Of a stretch of DNA of 28,386 nt, positions 8,639 to 26,013 are shown piece after piece. Source of the stretch: an uncultured delta proteobacterium (GTDB lineage: Bacteria; Myxococcota; Myxococcia; Myxococcales; Myxococcaceae); assembly GCA_963771175.1 (NCBI GenBank), contig CAVYSY010000053.1, positions 1 to 28,386 of the forward strand, in the 5' to 3' direction. A program made the position numbers and the translations under genes. Position 1 is the first letter of the stretch, and each line of letters starts with the position of its first letter. The notes beneath the pieces are model-generated. The model saw only the letters and a program-made list of their open reading frames with translations. It searched no databases and had not been told where the DNA came from.

Positions 8639-8885
8639 CGCGTCCTCGGGTCCCTGCCGCCACGGGCGCCATCCTCGGTACGTGACACCGACGGATGGCG
8701 AGCCCTACGGCGGGGCCCTCCCCTGCCCGCCCGCCCATGGTGTGGACCCAGGGGATGGATCGAGGCACCGGGGCGTACGGTGCCCGACTCCTCCTTGCTG
8801 CCCGGGAACAATGGGCGATGGGAGCACCCTCTCCTCATCTTTGAGCGGCCGTGCTGCGTCCATCGCACGGCGGAGGGGGACATCC

Positions 8886-10541
8886 ATGACTCGCCGTTAC
8901 CCACGCTGGGTCGCGATAGCTGGCGCCTGCGTGCTGTTCAATGCCTGCGGTCCGATGGAGGAACCGCCGGAGGACGCGGAGTCCTCGACGGCCACGGCGG
9001 CGCTCGAAGAGGATTTCGAACGCCGCGATCATCCAGACCGATGCACGCCTCCTGTCTTTGTCGCGGACCTCACCCCGGGCGCCCACACAAACGTGCTCGA
9101 GCAGGTCGAGGTGGACGGGGCGCTCTTCCTCGTCAATCTCGACCTCGTCAGGGACCGTTACTCCCTGTGGAAGTTGGAGGACCTGGCGGAAGGCCGGGGG
9201 AAGGCCCCGGAGTTCCGTGCCGTCCTCCTCATGGGAGACCTCCTCGAAGAACCGCGGAGGCTCGTCCGCGTGGGCCGGACGCTCTTCTTCACGTTCGATG
9301 ACGGAATCCACGGCCGCGAGCTGTGGAAGAGCGACGGGACACCCGAAGGCACGGTGCTGGTCGAGGACCTCAACCCGTTCGGCTCCGCCTTCCCCGACTT
9401 CCCCACCCTGGTGGCCGTGGACCGGACGCTCTACTTCGTCGCCGATGATGGCACCCACGGTGCCGAGCTGTGGCGCAGTAACGGCACGAAGGGCGGCACC
9501 CGGCTCGTGAAGGACATCGCCCCCGGGCCCACGAGCTCCTCTCCCGGCCCGTTCGCGGTGGACGACCACCGGCTCCTCTTCGTCGCCGACGATGGCACCC
9601 ATGGCCGCGAGTTGTGGCGCAGTGACGGTACGAAGGGAGGCACCCGGCTCGTGGAGGACATCGCCCCCGGGCCCGCGAGCTCCTCTCCCGAGCGACTGGT
9701 TCGAGTGGGCAGCCGCCTGACCTTCTTCACCGCCGATGACGGTGTGCACGGCCGCGAGTTGTGGCGCAGTGACGGCACGAAGGGAGGCACCGGGCTCGTG
9801 GAGGACATCCGCCCCGGTCCGGACAGTTCGGGCGTGGAGTCGCTGGTCGCGGCGCGGCGGACTCTCTACTTCACCGCCGATGATGGAGTGCATGGCCGCG
9901 AGCCATGGGCCTCCGCGGGATGCGAGGAAGACACCCGGCTGCTGAAAGACATCCGCCCCGGCGCGGAAGGCTCACGGCCCTCGGAGCTGACCCCGCTGGG
10001 CCGGAAGGTCATCTTCACCGCCGATGATGGAGTCCACGGCATCGAGCCCTGGCGGAGCGATGGCACGCGAAAGGGCACGCTGCTGCTCGCGGACACCTAC
10101 CCGGGCCCCGACCCGGGGTCCTCGATCCCGAGCATCCTCACGGCGGCGGAGGGGAAGGTCTTCTTCTATGCCTTCGAGCCCGCCACGGGCTTCGAGCCCT
10201 GGGTGACGGACGGCACGCCCGCCGGCACGCGGCTCGTGAAGGACATCAACCCGGGTCCCGCCAACGCCATCTCGGGAGATCCCGACCTGCTCTACCCGAT
10301 CCGCGGAGGAGTCGCCTTCCGGGCCTTTGACTTTGCCCATGGGAGCGAGCCCTGGTGGAGCGATGGCACCGAGGACGGAACGATGATGGCGGATCTCATG
10401 CCTGGGGCGGAGTCGTCGTTCCCGGCCAACTTCATTCCCGCTGGCCGGTGGGTCTACTTCACGGCCCGCCATCCCCTCTTCGGGAGCGAGCCCTGGGCAC
10501 TATCCCTGTCCTGCTTCCCGAAAGGCTCGGGCTCCCACTGA
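8886..10541 (+). CDS. ELWxxDGT-repeat beta-propeller lipoprotein
   Basis: ATG 8886 after GGAGGGGG RBS. Lipobox-like FNAC and about 9 [EL/EP]WxSDGT repeats. Confidence 0.92.
   Translation: MTRRYPRWVAIAGACVLFNACGPMEEPPEDAESSTATAALEEDFERRDHPDRCTPPVFVADLTPGAHTNVLEQVEVDGALFLVNLDLVRDRYSLWKLEDLAEGRGKAPEFRAVLLMGDLLEEPRRLVRVGRTLFFTFDDGIHGRELWKSDGTPEGTVLVEDLNPFGSAFPDFPTLVAVDRTLYFVADDGTHGAELWRSNGTKGGTRLVKDIAPGPTSSSPGPFAVDDHRLLFVADDGTHGRELWRSDGTKGGTRLVEDIAPGPASSSPERLVRVGSRLTFFTADDGVHGRELWRSDGTKGGTGLVEDIRPGPDSSGVESLVAARRTLYFTADDGVHGREPWASAGCEEDTRLLKDIRPGAEGSRPSELTPLGRKVIFTADDGVHGIEPWRSDGTRKGTLLLADTYPGPDPGSSIPSILTAAEGKVFFYAFEPATGFEPWVTDGTPAGTRLVKDINPGPANAISGDPDLLYPIRGGVAFRAFDFAHGSEPWWSDGTEDGTMMADLMPGAESSFPANFIPAGRWVYFTARHPLFGSEPWALSLSCFPKGSGSH
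9435..9820 (+). repeat. Three near-identical intragenic tandem units (periods 144 and 147 bp)
   Basis: Units start at 9435, 9579 and 9726 and each encodes one ELWRSDGTKGGT blade. Confidence 0.85.
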
Positions 10542-10629
10542 CGCACTGCTCCTCTACCACCAGGACCGAGCTCTCCCAGACGGCGTCAGGTGCAGATCCG
10601 CGCGCTGGACGCCCCGCCCAAGGAAACGT

Positions 10630-10663
10630 CCAGGTCGAGCTCCACCGTCGTCCCTCGACCTGG
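10630..10663. terminator. Hairpin between convergent genes
   Basis: CCAGGTCGAG-14 nt-CTCGACCTGG perfect 10-bp stem, followed shortly by TGTTTT. Confidence 0.5.
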
Positions 10664-10670
10664 CGCTGTT

Positions 10671-11651
10671 TTACTCCGCCGTCATCGCCGACCGATTCTC
10701 CCCAAGTCGCGCGGTAATCCAGGTCGTGACCTCGCTGATGATGGCGTCCCGCTCCGGCTCGTGAAGGAGGTCGTGGTACGCGTTCTCGTATAGGCGGAGG
10801 GTCTTGTCGGTGCTGCGCGCTCGTGCCGCGAGATCCTTGCTCCCCTCGACAGGGGTCGCCTTGTCGGCCAGCCCATGGAGGATGAGCAGCGGCACCCTCA
10901 CCTCCTCCATGCGCCCCTCGAGGTTCTCTACGGCCGTGAGCACCGCCTTCACCGAGCGCGCCGGGAGATCGGAGTGATCGATGAGCGGATCCTCCGCGAG
11001 CTCCTTCTGTACGGCGGGTTCACGATTGAACTCGGTGTCATCGAGGGGCTGCGCTGATAGGCCAGGGGTGACGGTGCCGAAGAAGCGCGCCGCGACCTTC
11101 TGCCCCCCGGTGACCGACGGTTGCAGCTTCAACGCCGCTCCGCTCAGCACCACACCGCGAAGCTGCTCGCCATGCTCCAGCGCGTAGTACGTCGACACCA
11201 GCCCCCCCATGCTGTGTCCGTAGAGGAAGACCGGCACGCCGGGGTTGCGCTTCTTCGCCTCCGCGACCGCGAGGTGGATATCGCCGACCATCTCCTCGAT
11301 CGAGTCGAAGCGCTGGCGGGGACCGCCCGAGTAGCCGTGGCCTCGATGGTCCTGCGCGTAGACCGCGAGCCCTTGTCCGGCGAGCGCCTCCGCGAGCGCC
11401 GAGTACCGGCTCCCATGGTCGCGAAATCCGTGAACGATGACGACGGCGCCGCGGACCGGGGTCTCCGGCGCCTTCCACTCGAACGCCTGCAGGCACGTCT
11501 CATTGGCCGCCTGCACGCGGTACGGCGTCAGGACCGCGCGCTCGGATCGGCTGGCGGACGGCATGGTGGTGGCGCACGGACTCACGGTGGCACAGCCCGT
11601 ACAGAGCGAGGCCACGAGCATCGTCAGTGCGAGGAATCCCGTGTTCTGCAT
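10671..11651 (-). CDS. Lysophospholipase/monoglyceride lipase-like alpha/beta hydrolase (lipoprotein)
   Basis: Lipobox-like CTGC. Motifs IVHGFRDH, DHRGHGYS, GHSMGG, HGLAD and YHDLLHE. Confidence 0.92.
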   Translation of the reverse strand: MQNTGFLALTMLVASLCTGCATVSPCATTMPSASRSERAVLTPYRVQAANETCLQAFEWKAPETPVRGAVVIVHGFRDHGSRYSALAEALAGQGLAVYAQDHRGHGYSGGPRQRFDSIEEMVGDIHLAVAEAKKRNPGVPVFLYGHSMGGLVSTYYALEHGEQLRGVVLSGAALKLQPSVTGGQKVAARFFGTVTPGLSAQPLDDTEFNREPAVQKELAEDPLIDHSDLPARSVKAVLTAVENLEGRMEEVRVPLLILHGLADKATPVEGSKDLAARARSTDKTLRLYENAYHDLLHEPERDAIISEVTTWITARLGENRSAMTAE

Positions 11652-11717
11652 GTTGAAGCTCCTGTGTGAAAGGTGGACACAGGGTGCTGGAGCGGGCGCG
11701 GCCGTGGATCCGCCAGA

Positions 11718-11757
11718 TGGCCTATATGGCGTCGATCAACCCATGGCGCACCGCCAG
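11718..11757. repeat. 40-bp direct repeat, copy 1 (duplicate of the 3' end of the HD-LuxR gene)
   Basis: TGGCCTATATGGCGTCGATCAACCCATGGCGCACCGCCAG matches 21463-21502 at 38/40. Confidence 0.9.
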
Positions 11758-12003
11758 GTCATCACGATAGGCGCGCCATTCCCCTCCGCTCATGCTCTCC
11801 AGCGTGATCGGCAGGGCCGGCTGACCCAGGCCCCCTGGAGCGTTCAGTCGGTGCAGGGCATGACAGATGATGTCGCGCAGGTCCTCGGCCTTGAGCGGAA
11901 ACACACCGCCTCCATAGGACGCCAGATCGACGGCGGGATCATTGATCAGTTGCTGCAGGCCCAGCAGCAGCCAGCGCAGATCGCGACGGTCATCGTGGGC
12001 CAT
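11722..12003 (-). CDS. Small hypothetical, probably chimeric: its last 11 aa come from the LuxR-tail repeat
   Basis: ATG at 12003. MAHDDRRDL...WRAYRDD then LAVRHGLIDAI*, versus LAVRHGLLDAV* of the regulator. Confidence 0.45.
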   Translation of the reverse strand: MAHDDRRDLRWLLLGLQQLINDPAVDLASYGGGVFPLKAEDLRDIICHALHRLNAPGGLGQPALPITLESMSGGEWRAYRDDLAVRHGLIDAI

Positions 12004-12052
12004 TAAGGGTGGCGGACCCGTGGCAGTGTGTCGGTGCCGGCGTGTGCCCAAA

Positions 12053-12141
12053 GCAGGCTGCACCGCCTCTCCTCCGGCCCGTCGCACAGCCCTCTTGGCA
12101 CCCGTCAGTGGCCCGCCCCTCCCTCTCCGCACCCGGCCTCA
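12053..12141. repeat. Degenerate ~88-bp direct repeat, copy A
   Basis: First 38 nt match 13047-13084 at 31/38. CCCGTCAGTGGCCC vs CCCGTCAGCGGCCC matches at 13/14. Confidence 0.7.
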
Positions 12142-12909
12142 GGCCCGGCCGGCGAAGGAGCCGCCATCGATGTTGAGCGCGTGCCCGGTGACGAACGAGG
12201 CGGCATCGGAGCACAGCCACACCACGCCCGCGGCGACCTCCTCCGGCTGGCCCGTGCGGCCCATGGGATGGATGGCCTCGAGCGCCTTACCCAGCTCCGG
12301 GCTCTCCTGGAAGAGCTTCTCCACCAGCACGGTGCCCCGGATGATGGCCGGGCAGACGGCGTTCACGCGGATGTTCCGCTGCGCGTACTCGAGCGCCGCG
12401 GTCTTGGTCAGGCCGAGCACCCCGTGCTTGCTGGCGGTGTAGAGGCCGAGTCCCTTGGTGCCAATGAGCCCGGCCATGGACGACATGTTGACGATGGAGC
12501 CGCCGCCCTGCGCGAGCATCTGCCGCAGCTCGTACTTCATGCACAGCCACACGGCCTTGAGGTTGGTGTCCAGGACGGTGTCCCACTCGTCCTCGTCGCA
12601 CTCATGGAGCGGACGTGGCACGTTGTTGGTGCCCGCGTTGTTGAAGGCGATGTCCAGGCGCCCGTAGTGCTCGACGGTCCCTCGCACGAGCGACTCGACC
12701 TCGGAGGCCCGCGTCACGTCCGTGCGGATGGCGATGGCCTCGCCCCCCTCCTGGCGGATCCGCTCCTCGGTCTCCGTGTTGCCCTGGATGCCACGGCTGG
12801 CGACGACGACCCGGGCGCCGGCCCGGGCCAGTGCGATGGCCGTGGCCTGACCGATTCCCGAGCTGGCTCCCGTCACCAGCGCGACCCTGCCCTCGAGCTG
12901 CTTCTTCAT
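12139..12909 (-). CDS. SDR family oxidoreductase (glucose 1-dehydrogenase-like)
   Basis: TGASSGIG, NNAG, YTASK catalytic motif, IRVNAVCP and C-terminal IDGG. Confidence 0.95.
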   Translation of the reverse strand: MKKQLEGRVALVTGASSGIGQATAIALARAGARVVVASRGIQGNTETEERIRQEGGEAIAIRTDVTRASEVESLVRGTVEHYGRLDIAFNNAGTNNVPRPLHECDEDEWDTVLDTNLKAVWLCMKYELRQMLAQGGGSIVNMSSMAGLIGTKGLGLYTASKHGVLGLTKTAALEYAQRNIRVNAVCPAIIRGTVLVEKLFQESPELGKALEAIHPMGRTGQPEEVAAGVVWLCSDAASFVTGHALNIDGGSFAGRA

Positions 12910-12974
12910 GTGTGCGCCCCCTGTTTGTGTACCGAAGAATACAGGAGCGTCCGGGCCCTGGCGCCCGGTGGGGC

Positions 12975-13043
12975 TCAGATCTCGTGGTAGATCTGCTGGA
13001 ACACGGCCACGCGGTACGAGTCGGGGAACACCACCACGTTACC
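12975..13043 (-). pseudogene. 22-codon 3' stub of an unknown gene upstream of the SDR
   Basis: GNVVVFPDSYRVAVFQQIYHEI* with near-perfect GC3 codon usage but no plausible start. It abuts repeat copy B. Confidence 0.45.
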
Positions 13044-13046
13044 CAC

Positions 13047-13133
13047 GCGGGCTGCACGACCTCTCCACCGGCCGGGCGCACTGCTCGGCGCCTCCCGTCA
13101 GCGGCCCTCCTCGGCCCCCTGCACCAGCCCTCA
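13047..13133. repeat. Degenerate ~88-bp direct repeat, copy B
   Basis: Aligns to 12053-12141. Confidence 0.7.
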
Positions 13134-13198
13134 CCATCAACACGCCTCCCATTCGCCCCATGCGTCACCTTCCCCGCTGAAATGGTGCGAAGGGGACC

Positions 13199-13261
13199 TC
13201 ACTTCTGGACGTCCAGAAGTGATGTAGGTTGATGTGTGATGCTTCTGGACGTCCAGAAGTG
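13199..13261. repeat. Two tandem perfect palindromes, centres 40 bp apart
   Basis: TCACTTCTGGACGTCCAGAAGTGA (13199-13222, 24 bp) and CTTCTGGACGTCCAGAAG (13242-13259). Confidence 0.95.
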
Positions 13262-13296
13262 CCCGTAGTACCGGCGGGGGCGGCCGGAGGGGACAG

Positions 13297-13365
13297 TGCG
13301 TGCACCGGACCATGTGGAACACCGATTCCGGGGCAAGTGGAACACTGATTCCGGGCAAGTGGAAC
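13297..13365 (+). mobile_element. Orphan IS21-family-like terminal end
   Basis: Starts TGCGT.., then tandem 22-23 bp units GTGGAACACCGATTCCGGGGCAA / GTGGAACACTGATTCCGGGCAA / GTGGAAC. These resemble the multiple AACACxGATTCC transposase-binding repeats of IS21 ends. No istA/istB follows. Confidence 0.65.
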
Positions 13366-13541
13366 GAACCCTGAAAGTAGGGAGCGGGACGGGCGCGCCC
13401 ACTGCTCACGTCCGGTGAGGGCTCCATCAACGAGCGTGACGCGCGCCCGTGCGTCCTCGCTGATGCCCATCAACCGGCATCACGGCGTTCACAGGGGTGT
13501 CGAGAAGCTTTGAGGTTCGGGGGCCGTGAGCACAGAACCGG

Positions 13542-14132
13542 TCACGGATAGATCTGGGTGATGCGGCCATTCGGGAAGTGCCGGCAGACGACGGGCTCGT
13601 CTGCGCCATGGCGGATCACCACGCGATGGGAGCTGCCTTGCCCGTCGTGCTGCATCTCTTCGACTTCGACTTCAATCAGCCGATCGCCGTCGTATTTGAA
13701 CGCCTCGGTGCGTGTGCCATATTTGCCATAGGACGATGTCTCTGTGACCCGACCCTGGTCCAGCATTCGGATCTTGGCGTGCAGCAACTCCTTGGATCGA
13801 GATGCTCCAAAGTGCAGTCCTGTGATGGACTGGTCTTCATGAATGAAGAAGTCCTCATGGAAGCAATCAGGCAACTCCGTGCCTGTCTTTCGGTAGATGA
13901 GCCGGTGATTGGCATCCAGGTACTGAAGGCACTTGCCCTTGGTCTTGGCAGGTGCCGATTTCAGGGCCTTGCCGCGCTTGAATCCCGCACGGTTGTTTTC
14001 CATCGGCTCGATTTCATGGAGCACGCCCGTGGACCAGATTTCGGTGTGTGGCACCTTGTTGATTTGCTCGAGCAGCGATGAGTATTGGTCGGCCTGCTTC
14101 CTGAAGACCGCTTCAGCTTGAGTTGTGTTCAT
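13542..14132 (-). CDS. Hypothetical protein, lower GC, possibly immunity-like
   Basis: 196-aa ORF from ATG 14132. Sampled lines are about 50-55% GC. Confidence 0.7.
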   Translation of the reverse strand: MNTTQAEAVFRKQADQYSSLLEQINKVPHTEIWSTGVLHEIEPMENNRAGFKRGKALKSAPAKTKGKCLQYLDANHRLIYRKTGTELPDCFHEDFFIHEDQSITGLHFGASRSKELLHAKIRMLDQGRVTETSSYGKYGTRTEAFKYDGDRLIEVEVEEMQHDGQGSSHRVVIRHGADEPVVCRHFPNGRITQIYP

Positions 14133-14262
14133 GGCGCCAAGGAAAAGTACCAGCAGCAATGCCGTTTTGAATGTCCTGCAGTTCGTTGCGAATGCCTGTT
14201 TCAGTGTTCTTGGCTGATGCGATCGCTCGCGAGGCCACGATCACCGCTGATCACTCCGCAGA

Positions 14263-14811
14263 TCAAGAGCGTGGGGAGGCCGGTGGCAGCGGGATGCCAG
14301 GGAACAGAAAGCTCTTGGAATCGTCCCAGTTGACGCCGGTTTCCGCATAGCGGGTGAGCCGCTTGCGCAGCTTTTCCGGGTCCCCGATCATCCCCGTCAA
14401 CTCATGTTGATAGATGGTCTGAGTGTCTTTGACCGGATCCAGGTCAGCTTGGATCAGCTTGGCATTCACACTCTGGAAGGTATCGTCCAGTTCCACCAGA
14501 CTTGCGCCGTATTTTCCATCGGCTTCAATGATGGGGGACAACATGCGTCTCGCCACGGGACGGGCATTGGGAACCACCAAGCCGGCCGGCAGGATCTCGT
14601 TGATCATGGCCTTGAAACGGTTCTCTGCAGCGTAGGCGCAGAAAATGATGGGCGCCTGGTTCAGGTCTGTGCCAGCCCAATCCGCGGTGCTCCGAAAGAC
14701 ATCGAAGAACTCCATCAAGGAGTTGGTGCGCATTTGAGCGAGGGTGAACAGATCGTCGCCGAGTTGAAAGCTCAACACAGCATTTTCTTTCCAGGGGATG
14801 CGCTTCAACAT
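14263..14811 (-). CDS. Hypothetical protein, lower GC, Imm26-like N-terminus
   Basis: 182 aa. KRIPWKENAVLSFQLGDDLFTLAQM resembles the KxGDVFxIPLxDxxFxLGQ start of Imm26-type proteins (by eye only). Confidence 0.7.
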   Translation of the reverse strand: MLKRIPWKENAVLSFQLGDDLFTLAQMRTNSLMEFFDVFRSTADWAGTDLNQAPIIFCAYAAENRFKAMINEILPAGLVVPNARPVARRMLSPIIEADGKYGASLVELDDTFQSVNAKLIQADLDPVKDTQTIYQHELTGMIGDPEKLRKRLTRYAETGVNWDDSKSFLFPGIPLPPASPRS

Positions 14812-14966
14812 TTCAGTGCTTTCGCAGCACGATGGTCATCGGCTGCCTTCAGGCCACCGTCGACGCGCACGCTGGTGGCATGTCTCGTGGTAGCAAGTCT
14901 TACATCGGCCTTGCTGGCTTCTTTGATCTCGCCCTTTAATAGATCTGCTGGCTGTCGGGATCAAGG

Positions 14967-15145
14967 TCACTCCACCACGGCGTTGTCCCAGCAGTTACCC
15001 TTGCGCGACATGCTGCATTGAATCCCGCGCGCGGCCAGCGCCTGCTGGTAGTCGGTGCTGGCGTACTGACTGCCCCGGTCCGAGTGGTGCAGCAGCCCTC
15101 GGCCCAGGTGCTATTGGGCTGGCCGGGGGAGAAGTTGCGCTTGAG
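14967..15145 (-). mobile_element. IS3-family transposase (OrfB/rve) remnant, internally deleted
   Basis: [15 protein letters not shown] is joined out of frame to [43 protein letters not shown]. Confidence 0.92.
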
Positions 15146-15146
15146 T

Positions 15147-15475
15147 CTCCCCCGCTTCCGTGGACACCGCCGAGGCGAGCGCATCCTCTGGCGGGCTGAC
15201 GACCACGAGAAGGTGACCCAGGTGTTGCTGGCCAAGTGGATGAGCCGCATCCAGCGGCTGGCTGAAGGTGACGGGGGGCATCCACACATCCTCCGCCACA
15301 CCTTCTGCTCCCGGCTGGTGATGGTGGGAGCCCCGGCAAAGGCCATCCAGGAACTGGCCGGGCACCAGCACCTCTCCACCACCCAGCGGTACATGCACCT
15401 GAGTCCGGCGGCCAAATCAGCGGCCATCCGGATGCTGGAGACAAAGGAGAAGGGGGCCACGGGCTGGAGACGAGA
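15147..15475 (+). pseudogene. Tyrosine recombinase/integrase C-terminal remnant
   Basis: HILRHTF (15285-15305), IQELAGH and catalytic Tyr in TTQRYMH (15390-15392). The N-terminal half is replaced by the IS3 remnant. Confidence 0.92.
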
Positions 15476-15515
15476 AAATCTTCAGCCCATAACCCAGTGG
15501 TTTCAACCACTTGAC

Positions 15516-15542
15516 TGGCCGGGGAGACAGGATTTGAACCTG
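15516..15542 (-). mobile_element. att-like tRNA 3' fragment (tRNA-Pro-like), copy 1
   Basis: Reverse complement CAGGTTCAAATCCTGTCTCCCCGGCCA = T-arm + acceptor strand + CCA. It lies directly downstream of the integrase remnant, and no 5' tRNA half is present. Confidence 0.8.
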
Positions 15543-15755
15543 TCTCCCCTGCCCTCGTGTCCTCCGAGCCCTGGCCACCGAGCCGAGCGGCTGGACCGTG
15601 GGAGCAGGGAACTCGGTCAGCTTCACCGCTAGCGCGTCGAAGTCGTGGAAGCCCTTGGAGCCCACCGCTTCGTCAGGTACCTGACTATGCCCAGGCCCGT
15701 GGGTGACGGTAGACTTGACTCCCCCACCACCCTGCTCGTCCGCCAAGAGGAGTAG

Positions 15756-18700
15756 ATGCAGACATGCAGAGAGGCGCAGTGGATCGCCCTCGTTCTCACC
15801 GTGGCCCTGGCCCTGCTGGGAGCGCGCGAGGCCCGGGCAGGAGAGCCGCCCGGCCGCATCGCGCTGCGTGGCTATGGGGCGGACTCCGGCCTACAGAACG
15901 CCGACACCAGCAAGGGCATCCAGGACGGAGAGGGGTTCGTCTGGGTCATCACCGCGGACGCGGCGTACCGCTTCGAGGGCGAGCGCTTCGAACGCTTCGG
16001 GCTGGAGTCCGGCTTGCCCTCGCTGCCCGTCAATGACGTGGCGCTGGATGCCGAGGGCCGGCTGCTCGTGGCGACGACCAGGGGGGTGGCCCGCTGGGAG
16101 GGAGCCCGCTTCACCGCCGTCCCCGCCCCGGGCGTGCCTCCCGAGGTGCAGGGCGTGCGCGTGGACACTCGAGGCCGGCTGCTGCTGTCCACCGCCCAGG
16201 GCTTGTTCGTGGAGGAGGTGCCGGGCCGCTTCACCCTGGCGCCGGGCTGGCCTGGGGGGCCCGCGGGAGCCCTGTGGGTGGATGCGTCCGGCGAGCTTCA
16301 GGTGGCCTCGGGCATGCGCCTGGCGAGCCGCGATGCGCGAGGGCAGTGGCACCCGCGGGAGGTCCCCCTGGCGCGCAGCCCCATCGCCGCCATCGCGCGG
16401 GACGGGCGGGGACGCCTGTGGTTGCGCGGCGACGGGTGGCTGGCCATGCGGCCCCGGGAGGGCGCGGCCTTCGAGGATCGCTCCGAGCTCATCGCGGGCA
16501 CGCTGAGCATCGCGATGCACCTGCGCGTGGGGCAGCGGGGGCAGCTCCTCATCCCCACCACCCGAGGCCTGGTGGAGGTGGAGGGCGAGCGCACGCGCGT
16601 CGTCCAGCTGGGGCGGCCGGGACAGGCCCTGCGGATGCGGGATGCGCTGGAGGAAACGGAGGGCTCGCTCTGGGTGCTGGGACAGGGAGCGCACCGGGCC
16701 CTGGGCCGTGGCCTGTGGAGCCTGCACGACGTCACCACGGGGTTGCCCGCGAGCGCCACCTGGGGGCTCACGCGCGGCGCGGATGGCACGCTGTGGGTGG
16801 GCACCGATGAGGGGCTCTGCGCGCGGCACGCCCGAGGGGTGGAGGGCCGTCCCCGGGCTGAGTGGCTACTCGCTCAAGGCGGTGGTGGTGGACCGGGACG
16901 GCGGGGTCTGGAGCGCGGGCAACCCGGGCGGGCTCCACCACTACGAGCCCCGAACGGGAGCGCTGCGCACGCTGCGGGAGGAGTCCGGCTTCTCCGCGCG
17001 CATCACCTTCAGCCTGCTGCTGGAGCCGGATGGCACCCTGTGGGCCGCCGGCTACGCGGGCCTCTTGCGCGGGGTGCGCCAGGGGGAGCGGTGGACGTTC
17101 GCGCCGGTGCTGCCGCACAGCCCCCGGATGCCATTCGTGGGCCTGGCCAGGGATGGAGCCGGGCGGCTGTGGGCCACGGGGGACGGGCTCTACGTGCGTG
17201 ACGGCGGCGGCTTCCACCGCTTCGGTGTCGGCGATGGGCTGAGGGATGACCGCGTGCGGTACCTGCTGGCCCGCCGCGACGGCCGCATCTGCGTGGCCTA
17301 CGCGGACCCCATCGGACTGAGCTGCTTCACCTACCGGGACGGGCGCCTGGACGAGGGTGTCCACCTGGACCCGACGACGGGGCTGCACAACGGCGTCGTC
17401 TACCAGCTCGGCGAGGACGCCTTCGGCCGTCTCTGGGTGGGCACCGGCGCCGGGGTGGAGCTCTTTGGCGACGGGTGGCACGTCCCCTTCGGGCAGAGCC
17501 AGGGCCTGCCGGGAGACACCCCCAACGGAAACTCCTTCCTGGCCGATGCCGATGGCACCGTGTGGGTGGGGACCACGAGCGGACTCGGCCGCTTCGAGGG
17601 GGCGCGCTACACGGGCCCGATGCCTCCACCCCGTGTGAAGCTGCTGGGCCTCACCTTCGGCCCCCACGCGCGCTCCCAGCTCCCGGACGAGCGGCTCCAG
17701 GTGGAGCATGACGCGTCGATGCTGGACGTCCGGTTCGCTGGGATGGGCCTCCACGAGGCCTCGCCCCTGGCGTACGAGGTGCGACTGGTGGGGCTGGACG
17801 ACTGGCACCCGCCTACGGCCAGCAGGGTGCAGTACGCCGTGCTCCCACCGGGCCGCTACCGCTTCGAGGTGCGTGCGCGCGGCGAGGGGGGCGCCTGGGG
17901 GCCCCCCCTGGGGTTCGACCTGGAAGTGCACCCGCCCTGGTGGGGCACGGTGTGGGGACGGCTCCTGGGCTTGCTGCTGCTGGGGGCCGGAGTGGCGGGC
18001 ATGGTGCGCTGGCGAGGACGTGTCCTTCAGCGCAGGAACGCCGAGTTGGAGGCGCTCGTGCTGGCCCGCACCACCGAGCTCACCCGGGCTCGTGAGCGAG
18101 TGGTCCAGGCGGAGAAGCTCTCGGCCATGGGCCAGCTGCTGGCCCGGCTCGCCCATGAAATCAACAACCCGCTCACCGCCATCCACAACAACCTCACCCC
18201 GGTGGGCGAGTACTTCGGGCAGATGAGCGAGGCCCTGCGGCGCTGCCGCGAGTGGCTCGGCACCCAACCCGAGCAGGCCACGGAGGCCGAGCGGCTGTGG
18301 CGGGAGCAGGACCTGGACTTCGTGCTCCAGGACTTGCCGGAGGCACTGGACTCGATGCGGAGCGCGTCGGAGCGCATCCGGTCCATCCAGACGGACCTGC
18401 GCGCCTTTCTGCGGGGCGAGCGCCCCAGCCTCGTCTCCGCGGACCCCGATCAGGTGGTCCGCGACACGGTCGAGCTGGTCCAGCGCACACTGCCTCCGGG
18501 CGTGCGGTTGGAGGTCCAGTGTGGCGGGGTGCCCCTCGTCCTGCTCCACCCGGGGCAGCTCGGGCAGGTGCTGCACAACCTGCTGCGCAACGCCGTGGAT
18601 GCCCTCGGGACCGAGGGCGAGGTGCGGGTGCACACGGCGGTGAGGGACGGCTGGGTGGAGCTGCGAGTGGCCGACACCGGGCCGGGCGTGCCCGTGGAGC

Positions 18701-18894
18701 TACGCAAGCGCATCTTCGAGCCCTTCTTCACCACGAAGGACGTGGGTCAGGGCTCGGGGCTGGGACTGGCCATCTGCCGGCAGATCATCGAGGAGAATCA
18801 CGGCGGCTCGTTCGAGCTGGACGAGACGGTGGAGCGGGGCGCGTGCTTCGTGGTGCGGCTGCCCCTGTCCCCTGCCCGGAACCAGGTGGCGTGA
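15756..18894 (+). CDS. Sensor histidine kinase with extracytoplasmic beta-propeller (Reg_prop) and Y_Y_Y domains; +1 frameshift near 16818
   Basis: Signal/TM segment, repeated DGxLWVGT blades, LPPGRYRFEVRA, PPWW TM, LAHEINNPL H-box, NLLRNAVDA, DTGPG, IFEPFFTTK and GSGLGL. Removing T16818 joins the two ORFs. Confidence 0.9.
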
Positions 18895-19091
18895 ACCCCC
18901 CCCCGAATCTCTACGAGGCCGGCACGTCCCACTCCACCTGCGATGTGATTCTTCACATCAGCACGCCGGATGCCGAAGCGCTGCGGCTCGTGGAACCGCT
19001 CCTCTGCGCTGAACGCCCCGGCTGCGCGCCGGGGAAAGTGTCAAGAATCCGCGTTGCACACGAGTCCGCATCGGGCGCAACCTGCGCGGCC

Positions 19092-19634
19092 ATGATTCAG
19101 TCCTTCGAGCGCACGACGACCGAGCGGCTCCTGCTCCGCCGCATCCAGGAGAGTGACCTGGACGCGGTGTTCACCCTCCATGGGGACCCGGAGACGAACC
19201 GGTTCAATCCTTCCGGGCCCCTGCGCTCCGTGGACGCCGCGCGCGAACTGCTGGAGCTGTGGCTGGGAGACTGGGCACATCGCGGCATGGGGTACTGGCT
19301 CGTGGAGCGGCGCGACGCGCCCGGGACTGTCGTGGGCTTGGGTGGAGTGCGCCACAAGGAGCTCGAAGGACAGAAGGTGCTCAACCTCGCCTACCGGTTC
19401 AGTCCCCAGTCATGGGGCTCGGGGTATGCGACGGAAGTGGCTCGCGTGTCCCTGGCGCTGGCCCGGAAACACATCCCCGACGTTCCGGTGGTAGCCATCA
19501 TCAACCTGGAGAACGTGCCCTCCCTCCGCGTGGCGGAGCGGCTCGGGATGCGGCGCGACCGAATCATCGACTACGAGGGCGTCGCGAGTGCCGTGTATCT
19601 GGCGGAATACAGAGCTGGGGGAGACAGGATTTGA
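19092..19634 (+). CDS. GNAT N-acetyltransferase (RimJ/RimL type)
   Basis: TERLLLR, WGSGYATE and ENVPSLRVAERLGM. The stop codon lies inside att copy 2. Confidence 0.9.
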   Translation: MIQSFERTTTERLLLRRIQESDLDAVFTLHGDPETNRFNPSGPLRSVDAARELLELWLGDWAHRGMGYWLVERRDAPGTVVGLGGVRHKELEGQKVLNLAYRFSPQSWGSGYATEVARVSLALARKHIPDVPVVAIINLENVPSLRVAERLGMRRDRIIDYEGVASAVYLAEYRAGGDRI

Positions 19635-19637
19635 ACC
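19618..19637 (-). mobile_element. att-like tRNA 3' fragment, copy 2
   Basis: GGGGAGACAGGATTTGAACC is identical to 15521-15540 and in the same orientation. Confidence 0.8.
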
Positions 19638-19640
19638 GGA

Positions 19641-19675
19641 GGGCCCGTGTCTTCAAGTTGGGATGACACGGGCCC
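19641..19675. terminator. Hairpin between convergent genes
   Basis: GGGCCCGTGTC-13 nt-GACACGGGCCC, perfect 11-bp stem. Confidence 0.55.
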
Positions 19676-19703
19676 AGCTGGAGAGGGGCGTTGCAGCTCG
19701 CTC

Positions 19704-20309
19704 TCAATAGGCAACCACGGTGGGCGGGTTCGTGGTGGTGAAGAAGTTGTAGTAGTAGGCGTGGTAGTTGGAGCCGCTGCCCGACTCGGTCAGGCCGTAG
19801 AGCGTGCAGCCCTTGGTGCCATCGACCTGGACGGTGGTGCCGTCGGGCATGAAGAGGTTGCTGAAGTAGACGTTGTAGATGGAGGGCCCACAGGTGAGCA
19901 TCGAGGAGCGTACGGTGCTCAGCGTATCCGGGGCGATCTGCTTGACGTACACGGAGGTGGGTGACGAGCCGCTCGCGGTGTTCTTGACGGTATAGGCGAC
20001 GGCGATGCCCAGATCATTGCCGGTGATGGCGGAGCTGGAGTTATAGGACGAGCCCACGGTGGTGGAGGCGGAGGCGCCGAAGGGGCAGCTACCGGAGGCC
20101 TGCCGGGTGACGACATAGTCATAGATGGGCGGGAAGACGCCAGGCCGCGCCTGGGCGGCGATGGTGAAGGTGCACCCGTTGGAGATGGCGATGGTGCTCA
20201 GCGCGCTGGCGCTGGTGGCGAGCTCTGACTCCTGGGCCTTCGAGTCCGGCCCGCAGGCGGGCAGGAGCAGCAGTGCGGCAAATGGAATGACTTGCTTCAA
20301 GGCATGCAT
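19704..20309 (-). CDS. Ser/Thr-rich beta-strand lipoprotein of unknown function
   Basis: Lipobox LPAC, four further Cys, strong codon bias, GGAGG RBS. Confidence 0.85.
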   Translation of the reverse strand: MHALKQVIPFAALLLLPACGPDSKAQESELATSASALSTIAISNGCTFTIAAQARPGVFPPIYDYVVTRQASGSCPFGASASTTVGSSYNSSSAITGNDLGIAVAYTVKNTASGSSPTSVYVKQIAPDTLSTVRSSMLTCGPSIYNVYFSNLFMPDGTTVQVDGTKGCTLYGLTESGSGSNYHAYYYNFFTTTNPPTVVAY

Positions 20310-20517
20310 GGAGGGACCTCCGGAAGGGGGTGAGCGACTTGCGTGCTGCGCTCATTCCCTAGCATGACCAGAGCCCTGCCTTCAATCCGCACAACCAGGA
20401 AGACGTGTTTCCCTTCTCAGATGTGCCCGGGTGGGCGGTGGTGGGACCCTCCCCCAACCAGCCCCAATCGTTGACACCCCAAGCGCAAAGAAAGCCAGAC
20501 AGCGGTTGATTCACTTG

Positions 20518-20650
20518 TCACGTAACCGGGGCAAGCCCAGACAGGTCGAGAAGGGTGAGCAGGGCTCCCGCATCGAGCGTCTTCTGCTGGGTAATGTCCC
20601 GCACCAGGAAGACCACGCTCTTGTGCTGAGAGGTCAGCAGTTGGAGGGTC
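20518..20650 (-). pseudogene. Possible PAS/PAC-domain fragment
   Basis: VVFLVRDITQQK resembles the PAC-terminal RDITERK motif. No intact gene around it. Confidence 0.35.
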
Positions 20651-20768
20651 AGCGACTCCTCGGGGATTCGTCTTATGCTTTCGCCCTCTTGCCAAGAATC
20701 ATCCGAGCATTCATCGCCATCCATGAAAAACCCGCCGATACCGCCGGGATTTATCGAGGAAGCCGTTC

Positions 20769-21360
20769 ATGGACACGAAGAATCGCGTGAGAGGAAGTGC
20801 TCGGGACTGGGCGAAGGTGCTGCTGGTGGCGCTGCTATCGGGTTGCGGGAGCGAGTCGAAGGCACCACCGCTCGCGCCGTCGTCCGTGCCGCCCGCGGAC
20901 AGCGCGGCGCTGACGTCCACCAGCCTCCAGGCCTGGAGCACATGCCCGTGGGGGAGCACCGACTGCAACCCGTGCGTCCCCAACGTCGTCAGCGCCTTCA
21001 ACGCCCTCTCCCATCATGGCGACATCCTCGGCTTCCACATGGGCGCGGGGGGTCGCGGACATCACCGCGGCATCCCACTGGCAGGGCGTCCAGCGCCTCA
21101 TGGCCGGCGGCGGCAGGTACCTGGCCGTCTCCCGCAGCGGCGCCGGGCAGATGTTCGCCGTCGTGAGGATGGAGGATAAGACCTCGGCCGTGCGCTGGTG
21201 CATCCCCGTGGGGTGGAGGTACCGGCTGTATGCCGACAAGAATCCGTGTGGCGGCAGCTACAAGGACCTGGTCGGCAATGGCGCCGTCCAGACGCTGAGC
21301 AACCTGGGTGACATCGGCTTCAACGACAAGGTGTCCTGCTCGAAATGGCTCCAGCAGTAG
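20769..21360 (+). pseudogene. Lipoprotein with C-terminal beta/gamma-crystallin-like motif; frameshift at G6 (21047-21052), possibly internally deleted
   Basis: Lipobox LSGC and CPWGSTDCNPC. The second frame gives EDKTSAVRWCIPVGWRYRLYAD...LGDIGFNDKVSCSKW. Confidence 0.65.
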
Positions 21361-21462
21361 CGCTCGCGGGCGCTATCGAATCGTGAACCGGGTCTCGTCG
21401 GCCCAGACCGCGTCGATTGAACAGGGAGCCGTCCTCGAGCTGGACGGTTCCATTTTGCTCAG

Positions 21463-21502
21463 TGGCCTATACGGCGTCGAGCAACCCATGGCGCACCGCC
21501 AG
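21463..21502. repeat. 40-bp direct repeat, copy 2
   Basis: TGGCCTATACGGCGTCGAGCAACCCATGGCGCACCGCCAG covers the last 11 codons, the stop and 4 downstream nt of the regulator. Confidence 0.9.
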
Positions 21503-22999
21503 CAAGGCCGCCGCCGCGCGTGTGTCTACCCCGAGCTTCTCGTAGAGATGAATGGTGTGGTGCTGCACGGTGCGGCTGGAGATGTCGAGCTGCTGGGCAA
21601 TCTCCTTGTTCGTCTTGCCCGTGGCGAGCAGCCGCAGCACCTCGAGCTCGCGCTCGGTCAGCGAAGGTGCGGACGCGGAGGTCGACGCACGCCGCTCGCC
21701 CATGGCCGCCAGGACGGCAATGACACAATCTTCATCGAGCGCGCCGCCCTTGACCTGCTCGCGCAGCAGCTTCGCGGTGGCGTCACGGCCCAGCGCGGCG
21801 CGGTGGGGACGCGTCTCCTGCATGCCGCACGCAGCATCGGCGACGGCGAGGAGGCGCGCGGGGCGGACGATGGCCGCCTGCTTCACCCCACGGTGGTAGC
21901 CAGTGCCGTCGAGCCGCTCGTGGTGTGCTCCGGCGATCTTCGCCACTCGCTCGAGCGGAGCGGCCGAGGCCAGCACGCGTTCGGTGAAGTACACGTGTGA
22001 GCGTGCGCGCTCCCGCTCCGTGGGGCGGAAGGGCCGTGGGCGGGTCCATACCGACGTCGCCACGGCCACCTGGCCGAGGTCATGGAGATGGGCGGCGAGC
22101 TTGAGCTCCTCGCGCTCCGCCGCGGGAAGGCCGAGGTTGGCCGCGGCCGCGTCGGCGAGGCGGGCGACAGCGCGTGAGTGGCCGCGCGTGAAGGTCGTCT
22201 GCAGATCGGCGAAGTCGCCGAACGCCTTGGCGATGTCCTCGATGGAGGTCTCGAGCGCGAGCGCCACGGGCATCCGGGCGACCGTGTCGAGGTGGGTGTC
22301 GAGGAAGTCGTCCTCGTCGAGGCGGAGCACCTGGCCGAGAGCGAGCTCGACCAGGCGGGGGTCGAGGCTCGTGCCGGCCCACGCCCGCAGCGTGTCTCGT
22401 GCCAGCTCACGGCCTCCCGCGAGCCAGAAGACGACCGCGACGTGCGCGACCTGGGCCACGCGCCCGACGCGTGTGAGGTCTTCGCCGCCCACCCCCTTCG
22501 GCGAGCCGGCGCCGTCCCATCGCTCGAAGACCTCCTCGAGCGCGAGCGAGACCCGCGAGCCGAGCCGAAGCTGCTCCGACAGTACCCGCGCCGCGCCACA
22601 GGCCTCGCTCGCCCATTCGCCGCGCAGGGTGCGCGCCTGCGTCGCGAGCCGGAGGAGACCAAGGCCCCGGCCCACGAGCTGCGAGTTCGCATGTGCCACG
22701 GCGGAGATGACGTCGCCGACCCGCGACGCATCCGATTGCATCAACCGCGACCGCAGCGCCACATCGTCGGCCGCCAGCGTGGACTCGACGGAGGCGTACG
22801 CCGTGCAGCCAAGGTGGCGGAGCAGCGAGGCAAAGAATGCAGCGGACTGCTCGTCGGCGCCGCAGCCCGCCTCTTGCGCCAGCTGGAGCGCGAAGGCGGC
22901 CGTGAGCAGGCTCTTGTCCTCCTCCAGCCCGTTCGCCAGGTCGAGGATGACGGAGAGGGCCGAGAGGCACTCGAGGGTTGGATTGTTGTGCGCACTCAA
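21467..22999 (-). CDS. Tandem HD(-GYP-like) domain protein with C-terminal LuxR HTH
   Basis: Degenerate first HD domain (LLRHLGC, FERWDGAGSP), second domain HLHDLG...HHERLDGTGYH, and LTERELEVLRLLATGKTNKEIA HTH. Confidence 0.93.
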   Translation of the reverse strand: MSAHNNPTLECLSALSVILDLANGLEEDKSLLTAAFALQLAQEAGCGADEQSAAFFASLLRHLGCTAYASVESTLAADDVALRSRLMQSDASRVGDVISAVAHANSQLVGRGLGLLRLATQARTLRGEWASEACGAARVLSEQLRLGSRVSLALEEVFERWDGAGSPKGVGGEDLTRVGRVAQVAHVAVVFWLAGGRELARDTLRAWAGTSLDPRLVELALGQVLRLDEDDFLDTHLDTVARMPVALALETSIEDIAKAFGDFADLQTTFTRGHSRAVARLADAAAANLGLPAAEREELKLAAHLHDLGQVAVATSVWTRPRPFRPTERERARSHVYFTERVLASAAPLERVAKIAGAHHERLDGTGYHRGVKQAAIVRPARLLAVADAACGMQETRPHRAALGRDATAKLLREQVKGGALDEDCVIAVLAAMGERRASTSASAPSLTERELEVLRLLATGKTNKEIAQQLDISSRTVQHHTIHLYEKLGVDTRAAAALLAVRHGLLDAV

Positions 23000-23078
23000 G
23001 GCTGGCTCGTCGGGCTACCGCCGCGGGCCGCATCTTGGCTGCACGCCTTGATGGACGCCAGCCAGAGGAGGACGAAAC

Positions 23079-23242
23079 TCAGATGTAGGCCGCGATGAAC
23101 TCGTCCCAGTGGGTATTCTGGGCGAAGGCGAGGCGGTCGTAGACGACCGACACCTGGCTGCGCGGAGTGGGGCAATAGATGGTGACTCCCGAGAACTTCT
23201 CGCCGACGGCTGCGAACGCAGTGGTGACGACCGCGGAGGATG
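23079..23242 (-). pseudogene. 3' stub resembling the C-terminus of clostripain-family (C11) peptidases
   Basis: SGVTIYCP...YDRLAFAQNTHWDEFIAAY* matches the GxSIYxP...YxxLxFaxxTxWDEFlxxY tail pattern. No 5' part. Confidence 0.55.
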
Positions 23243-23755
23243 TTACGCGCGCTTCTTCGCGGCCGGCTTGCTCTTCGCGCCGCCCGGTGCCTTCTTCTTC
23301 TCCGGCGGTCGGAGCACGGACTCGTAGTGCTCGATGTACGCTTTCGCGGGTGCACGGCGGATGGCCTCGCCGATCACATCGAGCGGGACATCCTCGAGCT
23401 TCTTGAAGCGCACGCACGCTTTGCCCATGTCGAGCTTCTTGCCCGTCTTCGCCCACGCCTCGCGGAACCACTTCTCGTGCTCCGGCTGGCCGTAGATGCA
23501 CATCAGGTAGACGGCCATGTGGCCCTTCTGCGAGGCCAGCGACGCGAACGGCAGCGGCTGCTTCGGATCGCAGTGGTAGCCGGCGGGGAACACCTCGTGC
23601 GGGACGTAGTAGCCGATCATCCCGTACTGCATGCCCTCCTCGTAGCTCTCGTCGAGGTTCTCGAGGATGACGTTGCGCACGGCGTAGATCGCCGCGCGGC
23701 GGTCCTCCGGAAGCGCGGCGAGGTACTGGTCGACGGTTGTGGCTTTGCTCTGCAT
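23243..23755 (-). CDS. DUF1801 (YdhG-like) domain protein
   Basis: MQSKATTVDQYLAALPEDRR, YGMIGYYVP, LASQK and KLDMGKACVRFKK. Confidence 0.88.
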   Translation of the reverse strand: MQSKATTVDQYLAALPEDRRAAIYAVRNVILENLDESYEEGMQYGMIGYYVPHEVFPAGYHCDPKQPLPFASLASQKGHMAVYLMCIYGQPEHEKWFREAWAKTGKKLDMGKACVRFKKLEDVPLDVIGEAIRRAPAKAYIEHYESVLRPPEKKKAPGGAKSKPAAKKRA

Positions 23756-23837
23756 GGAAGCGAGTGTAGCGCTCCAGGAACAAGCCCACGCCATCCGAAA
23801 AAAGTCCGTGCGGGAGGGGGGGCCGCCGGGCGCGGTC

Positions 23838-23874: not shown

Positions 23875-23981
23875 ACGCGAGCCCAGGAGGCGGGTGGGTC
23901 TCAGGTCTCATGGCGGGCGTGTGCTGTGCGAACGCACTGGCGCTGCTCGTCACCCCTGAAACGACCTACTTCAGAGGGGTA

Positions 23982-25363
23982 TCACGGCGCGACGAAGAGA
24001 CAGCGGGTGACGGGGACGATGATGTCCGCGAGCACGTACAGGTAGTAGGTCTTGCCGCTCGTCAGCGCGACGGGCTGGCCGCTCGCCGGGAAGCGCTGGG
24101 ACATGCCGGCGGGGATGACGCCGTAGCGCACCGTTCCACTCGCGACGGGAGACCCCTCGGCGGGCACGTCGATGCGCCACAGCGTGCCCTCGGGCAGGTC
24201 GAGGTTCGGCGGCACCGTCGGGGACGTGGCCTCCTGCTCGAGCACGTACACGTAGCGGGCCTTGCCCCCGCGCCAGTTGAGGGTGCCATCGGCGCTGATG
24301 CCTTCACCGTTCGCGCAGGCGGTGGGCCTGTACATGCGCTGGTCATCGAGCGGGCCCGCTCCGTACGGCTGGTTGGCGAAGTCCTCGCGCTTATAGCCGC
24401 GATGGGCGAGCTCGGACTCGAAGAAGCGCGCTATCCGCGCCGCGTCCGTCGTGACGAAGATGGAGTCGTTCGGGCGCTCGGGCGACGCGCGAGAGAAGCC
24501 GTTGTTGTGCTCGGGCCGATACGCGCCGAAGCCGACGGTGTTGATCCACCCGGCCCCCATGGCCAGGCCTCGCGGATAGAAGGAGTTGATGAAGTTGCCC
24601 GGCGACTCGACGAACCAGTTCGAGGGGCCCTTGGGCGCACGCGTCGAGTGACAGCAGACGCAGGCGGTCGACTCGATCTGCGACCTCACCCAGTTGAGCT
24701 CGGAGACGTACGTCGGATCCTTCATGCGCGCGTCGTCCCGCTCCGCGTCCTCCGCGGGAGGCACCGGGTAGTACGGGCGCTGGGTGCGCACGCGGTCGCA
24801 GCTCGCGTACTCGTTGAAGCTGCGGCCGGGCTCGGTGGCGCCGGAGATCATCTCCCACGTGCAGACCTTCCCCCCTTCCGACATCCCGGGCGGCTCGCCC
24901 TGCTTGGGGTCCACACACGTGAGCACCGGCTGCTGGAACGTCGGGAGCCCCGTGTCTCCCATGTCCACCACCTTCCCGCCGCAGACGGGAGACGGGTCGA
25001 ACACGCCGCCACCGAAGAGCTCACACCCGCGTTGCATGGTGCCACACGACTCCGCGTCCACGCCGGGAAAGGTGATGCGCGACCACTTCTCGTCCCCACC
25101 CTCCAGGAAGCAGTAGCCCAGCCGCTCCTCCATGTTGCACGCCGAGCCCAGCTCGACCGTCGAGCCCTGGTCCTTGCAATCCTCCACCGCTTCCTGCTCG
25201 GTCCACTCCCCGACGTAGTCGCGGCACTCCTGGAGATCGCTGAACTTGTTCGTGTAGAGGCAGTGGCCCACCACCTTCTCGGGGACCTGGGAATCTCCTT
25301 CTCCTGGCACGCCACGAGGACGGACAACAGGACGCAACAAGACAGCAACCGCGACGCGGTCAT
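23982..25363 (-). CDS. Cys-rich lipoprotein with a single CxxCH motif; 1-nt deletion near 25289-25291
   Basis: MTASRLLSCCVLLSVLVAC lipobox in one frame and the body in another. CVCCH at 24648-24662. Confidence 0.8.
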
Positions 25364-25394
25364 GGAATGACTCCCGTTTGGAACGACGTTTGGA

Positions 25395-26013
25395 TTACTT
25401 CGCGTAGCCCTTCATGAAGCCGTCGAGGCGCCGCTCGATGAAGACCTCGAGGTCGAGCGGACGACAGCGGCGTCCCTGCAACTGGTGCTGGTGGAAGAGC
25501 GCCATCAGCACCGGTGACAGCAGCGCGAGCGCGGCGACGCGCGCATCCGGCACCGACAACTCGCCACGCGCGTGGAAGATGATGAGCAGTTCTTCGATGG
25601 AGTTGAGCGTGGGCTCGAAGATGGAGGAGATGTAGAGCTGCCCCAGCTTCGGTCACTCATGCCCTCGGCGAAACCGGCGGCGTGCATGCCACCCAGCGCC
25701 CCCGTCCACGCGATGGAGATCTGCTTGAGCAGGTGATGGAAGGCCGGGCGCGCCGGCTGCTCGGCCAGGCTCTTCGCCCAGGCCTGGCGCTCCTGCCCGA
25801 ACTTCATCAGGTGCTCGAAGGCGGCCTGCACCACCCCGCGACGATCGCCGAGTAGTGCCGCAGCGCGCCCGGGTCCACCCCGGCTCCCTCCGCGAGCACC
25901 CGCAGGCTCGGGCGCGCGCCACCCGCCATGAGGATTCGCCGCGCGAGGCTCTCCACGAGCCTCGAACGTGTCAGCTCATGATCCCGGTTGCGCGAGCCCG
26001 ATATCCTTCCCAT
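25395..26013 (-). CDS. TetR/AcrR family regulator, two apparent 1-nt deletions (~25850, ~25652)
   Basis: MGRISG...PSLRVLAEGAGVDPGALRHY(F)GDR HTH. The frames continue VVQAAFEH...EGMSD and (P)KLGQLY...LDGFMKGYAK*. Confidence 0.8.

Follow-up and report, generated by a model that had tools for sequence, protein, structure and literature searches.

A 40-bp repeat brackets a 9.7-kb insert in a conserved regulator-hydrolase pair of an uncultured myxobacterium and suggests insertion with long target duplication

The class of rearrangement known as insertion with long target duplication was described by Nobusato et al. in 2000 and extended by Furuta, Abe and Kobayashi in 2010 (PMC2853133). In the passages of the latter account on which we draw, the repeats of this class range from 46-47 bp to ~400 bp, and the 46-bp duplications of H. 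influenzae are identical at 44 of 46 positions, unique in the genome, overlap gene 3' ends and involve no mobile element. The authors link the mechanism to DNA breakage by the restriction-modification genes carried in the published cases. Direct repeats also bracket elements that integrate site-specifically into the ends of protein genes, a well-known habit of which SGI1 at the 3' end of trmE and the dusA islands are examples, and there too, as far as the consulted parts of these sources go, a slightly divergent copy keeps the frame of the target complete (PMC8409611, PMC4482086). The locus analysed here resembles both. It lies in a stretch of 28,386 nucleotides from an uncultured delta proteobacterium of the Myxococcaceae (GenBank assembly GCA_963771175.1, contig CAVYSY010000053.1, positions 1 to 28,386), called the window below, in which a gene for a regulator with an HD domain and a GerE (LuxR-type) helix-turn-helix is separated by 9.7 kb of unrelated DNA from the gene for an alpha/beta hydrolase. 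The window is the whole of contig C53 in a 58-contig draft assembly of 9.83 Mb, 82% complete with 4.5% contamination.

A sequence-only reading of the window had proposed that the last 11 codons of the regulator gene, its stop codon and 4 downstream nt recur 9,745 bp away in the same orientation, and this was confirmed. The two 40-mers (copies 1 and 2, Table 1) are direct repeats, identical at 38 of 40 positions and 9,745 nt apart from start to start; the exact runs that they share measure 9, 8 and 21 nt, and outside both borders, which are sharp, similarity is at background level. The chance expectation for such a repeat pair in the window is about 2e-10. When up to 3 mismatches are allowed, the 40-mer is found at exactly two places in the 9.83-Mb assembly, both on C53, which rules out that it is the common tail of a set of paralogues, the finding by which the sequence-only reading would have fallen; an exact-pattern scan of metagenome contigs with its 28-nt core gave 0 matches. 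Copy 2 closes the regulator gene and copy 1 is a stub that differs from the functional tail by two conservative codon changes and is fused in frame to a fragment of an unrelated gene. The stop codon of copy 1 (11724-11722) stands exactly 70 nt upstream of the hydrolase ATG (11651), in keeping with the claim that a repeat copy lies about 70 bp ahead of a co-oriented lipase gene, which proved to encode a Hydrolase_4 protein.

The regulator is intact in this genome, with an N-terminal half without known family, an HD_5/HD domain and a C-terminal GerE helix-turn-helix, and residues 6-508 align to relatives. Its genomic context, and that of the hydrolase, points to a two-gene module. Searching 120 family genomes with the hydrolase gave 19 loci outside this genome, and at 17 of them, from other genera, a regulator homologue lies directly upstream and co-oriented, the exceptions being G049, with the regulator 10 kb upstream, and G055, with neither regulator nor motif nearby. 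Conversely, among 207 family genomes searched with the regulator, 38 had a match, and in 25 of the 29 loci from other genera that were examined the hydrolase directly follows. The two sets of loci overlap and the genomes are related, and these counts are consequently not independent. The nearest relative (G024; regulator 68% and neighbouring hydrolase 68% identical at the amino acid level) also has a spacer of 70 nt. Furthermore, the DNA beyond copy 1 continues with the conserved intergenic motif of these loci, and the DNA beyond copy 2 does not. This adjacency, the spacer of G024 and the ancestral continuation kept by copy 1 strongly support the order regulator to hydrolase, side by side, as the ancestral one, as the sequence-only reading had supposed. 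A single regulator and a single hydrolase were found in this genome. Within the genus, no orthologue of the regulator was found in 17 genomes, a lenient search of four of them giving HD-domain paralogues only, and one member (G002) keeps the hydrolase at 84% nucleotide identity in another neighbourhood and without regulator.

The motif in question is an 18-bp palindrome, ATAGGCCATCTGGCGGAT, built as ATAGGCCA-TC-TGGCCGAT, which stands directly after the regulator stop codon or overlaps it. In 26 of the 29 loci of the regulator search, and in 17 of 17 of a second count, no more than 120 nt separate its core GCCANNTGGC from the regulator stop; the core is found on the hydrolase side of an insert in two further loci, and is kept across genera whose regulators share only 41-68% identity (loci including L004 and L224-L250). 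The palindrome is single-copy in the window and in the genome as a whole. Given this conservation, it may be a protein-binding site of the hydrolase promoter, the simplest case being an operator for the GerE-type regulator next to it. One locus (L249, G176:C93) has the palindrome after the regulator and a next open reading frame (ORF) without match to the Hydrolase_4 partner, by eye another esterase type. Here and in seven examined loci, the TAG stop of the regulator is part of the left half of the palindrome. The 40-mer border that faces the hydrolase (GGCCA|T) coincides with the dyad centre, from which copy 1 leads on through the right half-site to the ancestral spacer; the DNA after copy 2 is unrelated from that point on.

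The explanation that we favour, with moderate confidence, is that a 9.7-kb insertion that duplicated a long stretch of its target took place at the regulator stop and survived because reading frame and palindrome were both kept. A conserved Myxococcaceae module of HD-domain/GerE regulator, palindrome and hydrolase would have been split at the stop codon of the regulator by an event that duplicated 40 bp of the target, which comprise the 11 final codons, the stop and the palindrome's left half. Of the two 40-mers, one would then close the regulator gene, and the other would remain before a complete palindrome and the hydrolase. Since the TAG belongs to the palindrome, an insertion without duplication would destroy either the frame or the palindrome, so that selection would have spared a duplicative event. 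The duplication itself may have been made by filling-in of a staggered double-strand break or by template switching; in the literature as well, according to the consulted parts of PMC2853133, the mechanism is not established. Subsequently, the insert would have been remodelled block by block, leaving debris of an insertion sequence (IS), an integrase and a tRNA fragment, together with a GNAT block and dispersed repeats, and the stub would have been drifting, with its two conservative codon changes here and half of it perhaps deleted in a sibling strain. At 9,705 nt and 40 nt, the insert and the direct repeat lie on the expected sides of the limits given for the described class (less than 20 kb and more than 30 bp; PMC2853133). 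Within the portions of that account considered here, the likeness extends to a repeat that is unique in the genome, near-identical and overlaps a gene 3' end, to the absence of a responsible transposase or integrase, and to a gene fusion at a junction, which is reported there too. Unlike the cases presented in those portions, the host here is a myxobacterium and the site is reused across genera with duplications of 0, 7 and 40 nt. Among the full-text matches listed for long target duplication, mostly on restriction-modification systems or Helicobacter, there was no myxobacterial case.

Several observations weigh against this explanation. That the insertion event itself made the duplication, that a single event lies behind both junctions and that selection explains the position of the breakpoints are steps that the present arrangement suggests, and the empty sites come from other genera only. 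No same-species empty site was found in 40 relatives, in the 207 family genomes or in the genome and metagenome contig collections (best regulator 68% identical at the amino acid level); the nearest ones, with regulators 63-68% identical, show one regulator tail that runs straight into the motif. A 40-bp repeat of 95% identity that restores a gene 3' end is equally what site-specific integration classically leaves behind, and an integrase could have been lost in the remodelling, and the two mismatches could be differences between attP and attB rather than drift. The IS and integrase relics may be internal debris with other specificities, and a lost mobile element is a possible agent. The published cases, in the parts of PMC2853133 referred to here, carry restriction-modification genes, whereas no restriction or modification domain was present among the Pfam matches for the 19 + 55 translated frames of the region. 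As for the palindrome, its operator role is putative, and no copy of it was found upstream of the regulator at up to 3 mismatches. Finally, the 7-nt repeat at a second insertion (in G183, see below) includes the TAG that the palindrome requires, leaving only 4 further nt that carry weight.

Among the other explanations, the one that survives best, although we hold it to be unlikely, is that the 40-mers are the attL and attR of a site-specific element which entered at the 3' end of the regulator with a replacement tail and whose integrase and most content were later lost or overwritten. It explains the geometry as well as a long target duplication does: the repeats have the same orientation and sharp borders, the 3' end is restored, and the 2 differences in 40 may be those of attP and attB, in line with the protein-gene integrations mentioned above. 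A border at the centre of a dyad, and three or four independent breakpoints within about 10 nt, also suit it. However, the end of the insert at 11758 truncates an unrelated gene exactly at the border of the repeat, which is unexpected for an attP, the other insertions at this site have a 7-nt duplication or none and no recombinase, no further 40-mer core was found in the genome or the metagenome collection, and the genes of the insert look native to the genus, with relatives at scattered loci in 200 family genomes. Compared with SGI1 and the dusA islands, as depicted in the consulted parts of PMC8409611 and PMC4482086, this locus has no cognate integrase beside an att, one of its ends cuts an unrelated gene, its content is a native-type patchwork, and element and att are found in no other genome examined. 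The literature matches listed for a Myxococcus genomic island with direct repeats, integrase and attB held no corresponding case.

The only integrase sequence in the insert is itself an argument against an att origin of the repeats. It is a relic of the catalytic end of a tyrosine integrase, more than 3.4 kb from either end of the insert, and is accompanied by a 35-nt fragment of the 3' end of a tRNA-Pro gene. The full-length relatives of this integrase, of 445-544 aa and from other genera, adjoin a tRNA-Pro(CGG) gene in 4 of 4 genomes. These tRNA-Pro(CGG)-targeting elements (L139-L142) are 76-87% identical at the nucleotide level to the relic and the tRNA end; by comparison, all that is left in the window is the final third of the integrase plus the tRNA fragment, without tRNA gene, and ARAGORN found no whole tRNA in it. 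The 35-nt fragment, 94% identical to two places in its own genome, is on this likeness the att remnant that belongs to the integrase relic. Contigs and reads of four public runs were also compared with the window over positions 10600-23100 (likeness threshold 85), and one run, X20, represents a close sibling that diverges by about 1% in the kinase and the hydrolase. In this run, a contig joins 13112 to 15576 (side 255, 2 letters between) and skips the whole sub-block in which the relic lies. The relic is ruled out as the maker of the 40-mer because it has its own tRNA-Pro att and belongs to a block missing in the sibling strain. The sequence-only reading had placed integrase, att-like and IS fragments and lower-GC DNA between the two copies, and they are there (GC 56-58% at 13.5-15.0 kb), but its view that these account for the repeats did not hold; of its proposal of attL/attR-like or microhomology junctions, the part that relied on the island's integrase is given up, and an insertion without a dedicated att fits better. 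A target duplication by a transposon was likewise rejected, as the only transposase sequence is an rve relic of 130 nt and 40 nt is far above the usual length of less than 10 bp given in the part of PMC2853133 concerned. No inverted repeats pair the two ends of the insert among the 25 longest of 76 pairs.

Two further genomes of the family carry other DNA at the same spot. In G183 (L225, G183:C48), 0.69 kb stands between the TAG and GCCATCTGGCC, and a direct repeat of 7 nt, GGCGTAG, marks the two junctions; the site is empty in three congeners, and the stop overlaps the palindrome in this lineage. In G049, about 10 kb of ordinary genes separate the TGA stop from CATAGGCCA and encode an activator of NtrC type, a subtilase, a kinase and two TonB_C proteins; nothing is duplicated here, the site is empty in the congener G091, and stop and palindrome are separate in that genus. 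No recombinase was found in either insertion. In G002, homology to the window starts exactly at TATAGGCCA. The insertions of G183 and G049 are independent and struck the same few nucleotides. A duplication is seen where stop and palindrome overlap and none where they are separate, which with three cases is a pattern rather than a test. It is conceivable, if rather doubtful, that the junction of stop and palindrome is a truly targeted hot spot of the Myxococcaceae, where a break-prone, protein-bound dyad or an unrecognised recombination activity would capture unrelated DNA with duplications of 0, 7 or 40 nt, in three genera and with regulator loss at the same breakpoint in a fourth genome. The G183 insert contains two small ORFs of 72 and 137 aa that overlap by 4 nt, a layout that recalls a toxin-antitoxin pair; we do not name it as such, the sole support being a FitA-like ribbon-helix-helix match with E = 0.068.

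A third alternative, which we consider improbable, is that two copies of the module were once present, through segmental duplication or uptake from a close relative, and that the first hydrolase was then lost by deletion, as was the second regulator except for 40 bp. The DNA immediately past the regulator does have a second copy in the assembly, 94% identical (23978-28385 against contig C45; DUF1801 gene 90%), block deletions are frequent, X20 having lost 452 nt of the regulator and part of the stub, and the 40-mers, at 5%, have diverged about as much as the C45 duplicate, at 6%. At least three events would nevertheless be needed, with end points that by coincidence lie 40 nt apart in the ancestral sequence; moreover, the C45 copy continues into an ABC-transporter gene, and the genome has one regulator and one hydrolase only. 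A chimeric join at a short repeat in the draft, to which 58 contigs, a window that is one whole 28-kb contig and a near-duplicate region on another contig might lend some colour, is highly unlikely since a contig of run X4 (11459-11915) bridges the junction of copy 1 and insert independently and contigs of runs X20 and X1 break at 21463, and such a join would create no stub, with a longest exact shared run of only 21 nt.

The content of the insert (Table 1) is a patchwork of genus-type genes and relics and not one coherent element; the orthologues of its genes lie at scattered loci of the same genus. Those of the short-chain dehydrogenase/reductase (SDR), kinase and GNAT genes are 83-92% identical at the nucleotide level, and homology stops at the gene borders. 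The fragment called orf94, to which copy 1 is fused, lacks the first ~45 codons of its G207 homologue, and at its 3' end it breaks off exactly at the border of the 40-mer, 6 codons short of the native stop. On either side of the SDR gene stands a dispersed repeat of ~100 nt (12036-12140 and 13040-13166), the two copies in direct orientation. Short dispersed repeats of this kind (13196-13261, 13040-13166, 12036-12140 and 13297-13395) have dozens of copies across the contigs of the genome, and one of them is a 65-nt element with a perfect 20-nt inverted repeat. The kinase gene has a +1 frameshift near 16818; three public runs lack one base at 16818/16819, and its removal opens a frame of 1046 aa, so that the extra base (16806-16830) is either a real frameshift or an assembly error. 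With curated cutoffs, Pfam and NCBIfam gave no match for the lower-GC ORFs, the lipoprotein ORF, the ORF at 20914-21360, the 11760-11984 fragment or the two ORFs of the G183 insert.

Table 1. Features of the split locus, with positions on the 28,386-nt window
Feature	Position	Strand	Description
Alpha/beta hydrolase, Hydrolase_4, lysophospholipase/monoacylglycerol-lipase type	10671..11651	-	Pfam Hydrolase_4 5.5e-72
18-bp palindrome ATAGGCCATCTGGCGGAT	11708..11725	-	putative operator/promoter element of the hydrolase
Copy 1 of the 40-mer	11718..11757	-	displaced regulator-tail stub, LAVRHGLIDAI and stop; contiguous with ancestral intergenic DNA
Insert, 9,705 nt	11758..21462	.	patchwork of blocks with separate histories
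orf94 fragment	11760..11984	-	81% nucleotide identity to a ~127-aa ORF of G207 ending ...AMQPPG*; no Pfam/NCBIfam match
SDR oxidoreductase	12139..12909	-	Pfam adh_short_C2 9.7e-67; 83-87% nucleotide identity to genus relatives at other loci
Sub-block absent from X20	13113..15575	.	lower-GC DNA, two ORFs, IS relic, integrase relic, tRNA fragment
Two lower-GC ORFs	14159->13545, 14811->14266	-	no family match; GC 0.56-0.58
IS3-type (rve) transposase relic, ~130 nt	14970..15101	-	97%/89% nucleotide identity to ORFs in G024/G111 with rve/rve_2/rve_3/HTH_21
Tyrosine integrase C-terminal relic (catalytic end only)	15165..15480	+	Phage_integrase profile positions 109-169 of 172
tRNA-Pro 3' end, 35 nt	15516..15550	-	aligns to the tRNA-Pro(CGG) 3' end beside the integrase in L139
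Reg_prop/Y_Y_Y sensor histidine kinase	15756..18894	+	Pfam; 92% nucleotide identity to orthologue in G002, homology ends 15734 and 18894
Sub-block	18895..21462	.	in X20 and part of X1, not present between kinase and copy 2
GNAT acetyltransferase	to 19634	+	Pfam Acetyltransf_3; 94% nucleotide identity to copy on contig C50
Lipoprotein ORF	20309->19707	-	no family match
Small ORF	20914-21360	+	no family match
Terminator-like hairpin	21425-21451	.	follows the small ORF; copy 2 is 11 nt away
Copy 2 of the 40-mer	21463..21502	-	functional last 11 codons LAVRHGLLDAV, stop, 4 nt (left half of palindrome only)
Regulator gene, 510 aa	21467..22999	-	Pfam HD_5 3.3e-31, GerE 4.9e-20

The sibling strains differ from the window by further blocks. 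A joint from 18894 to 21463 is present in X20 (side 80) and in part of X1 (side 52), with at most ~160 letters between in X20, as estimated from the record length, and we claim no second insertion at that very bond. The X20 regulator has an internal deletion of 452 nt (22001-22452) and a second gap (21543-21819), and is probably a pseudogene; the hydrolase is intact. These deletions fit a loss of function after the split, as a single observation. Coming from the hydrolase, the X20 contig departs from the window halfway through the stub (joint 11737 to 12002), a hint, with a short side of only 27 nt, that the stub is shortened in this strain. The split is consequently older than these strains, and the region keeps changing by block insertions and deletions. 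No skip of 9,745 nt and no circle junction was present among the joints listed; contigs drop rare variants, and this is hence uninformative on excision.

Elsewhere on the contig, the second copy on C45 extends over 4.4 kb, runs on into the ABC-transporter gene and not into a regulator (the DUF1801 gene is at 23246-23785 in the window), and may be a segmental duplication or stem from a second strain in the assembly. The ORF at 8682-10541 (619 aa, no Pfam match) contains seven tandem units of 144-147 nt (48-49 aa) at 9283-10275. In G011, of the same genus, 4949-6688 and 8725-10548 are contiguous and the segment 6689-8724 is missing; the 5'-nucleotidase gene (6803-8638) is therefore another block insertion or deletion of the contig.

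Altogether, this locus belongs to a known, poorly understood kind of bacterial rearrangement, to which it adds the recurrent use of a site and a cargo other than restriction-modification genes. A restored gene end with an integrase in between does not suffice to identify an integrative element. Should the repeated use of the site reflect mechanism rather than selection, the junction would be a tractable place for studying long target duplication, and a true hot spot would mean that restriction-modification genes are dispensable for insertion with long target duplication and would offer a defined, recurrent site of study. The conserved 18-bp palindrome is a testable candidate operator for an uncharacterised family of HD-domain/LuxR-type (HD/GerE) regulators. 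The locus is also a clean natural example of a conserved regulator-target pair that has been pulled apart with both parts formally intact.

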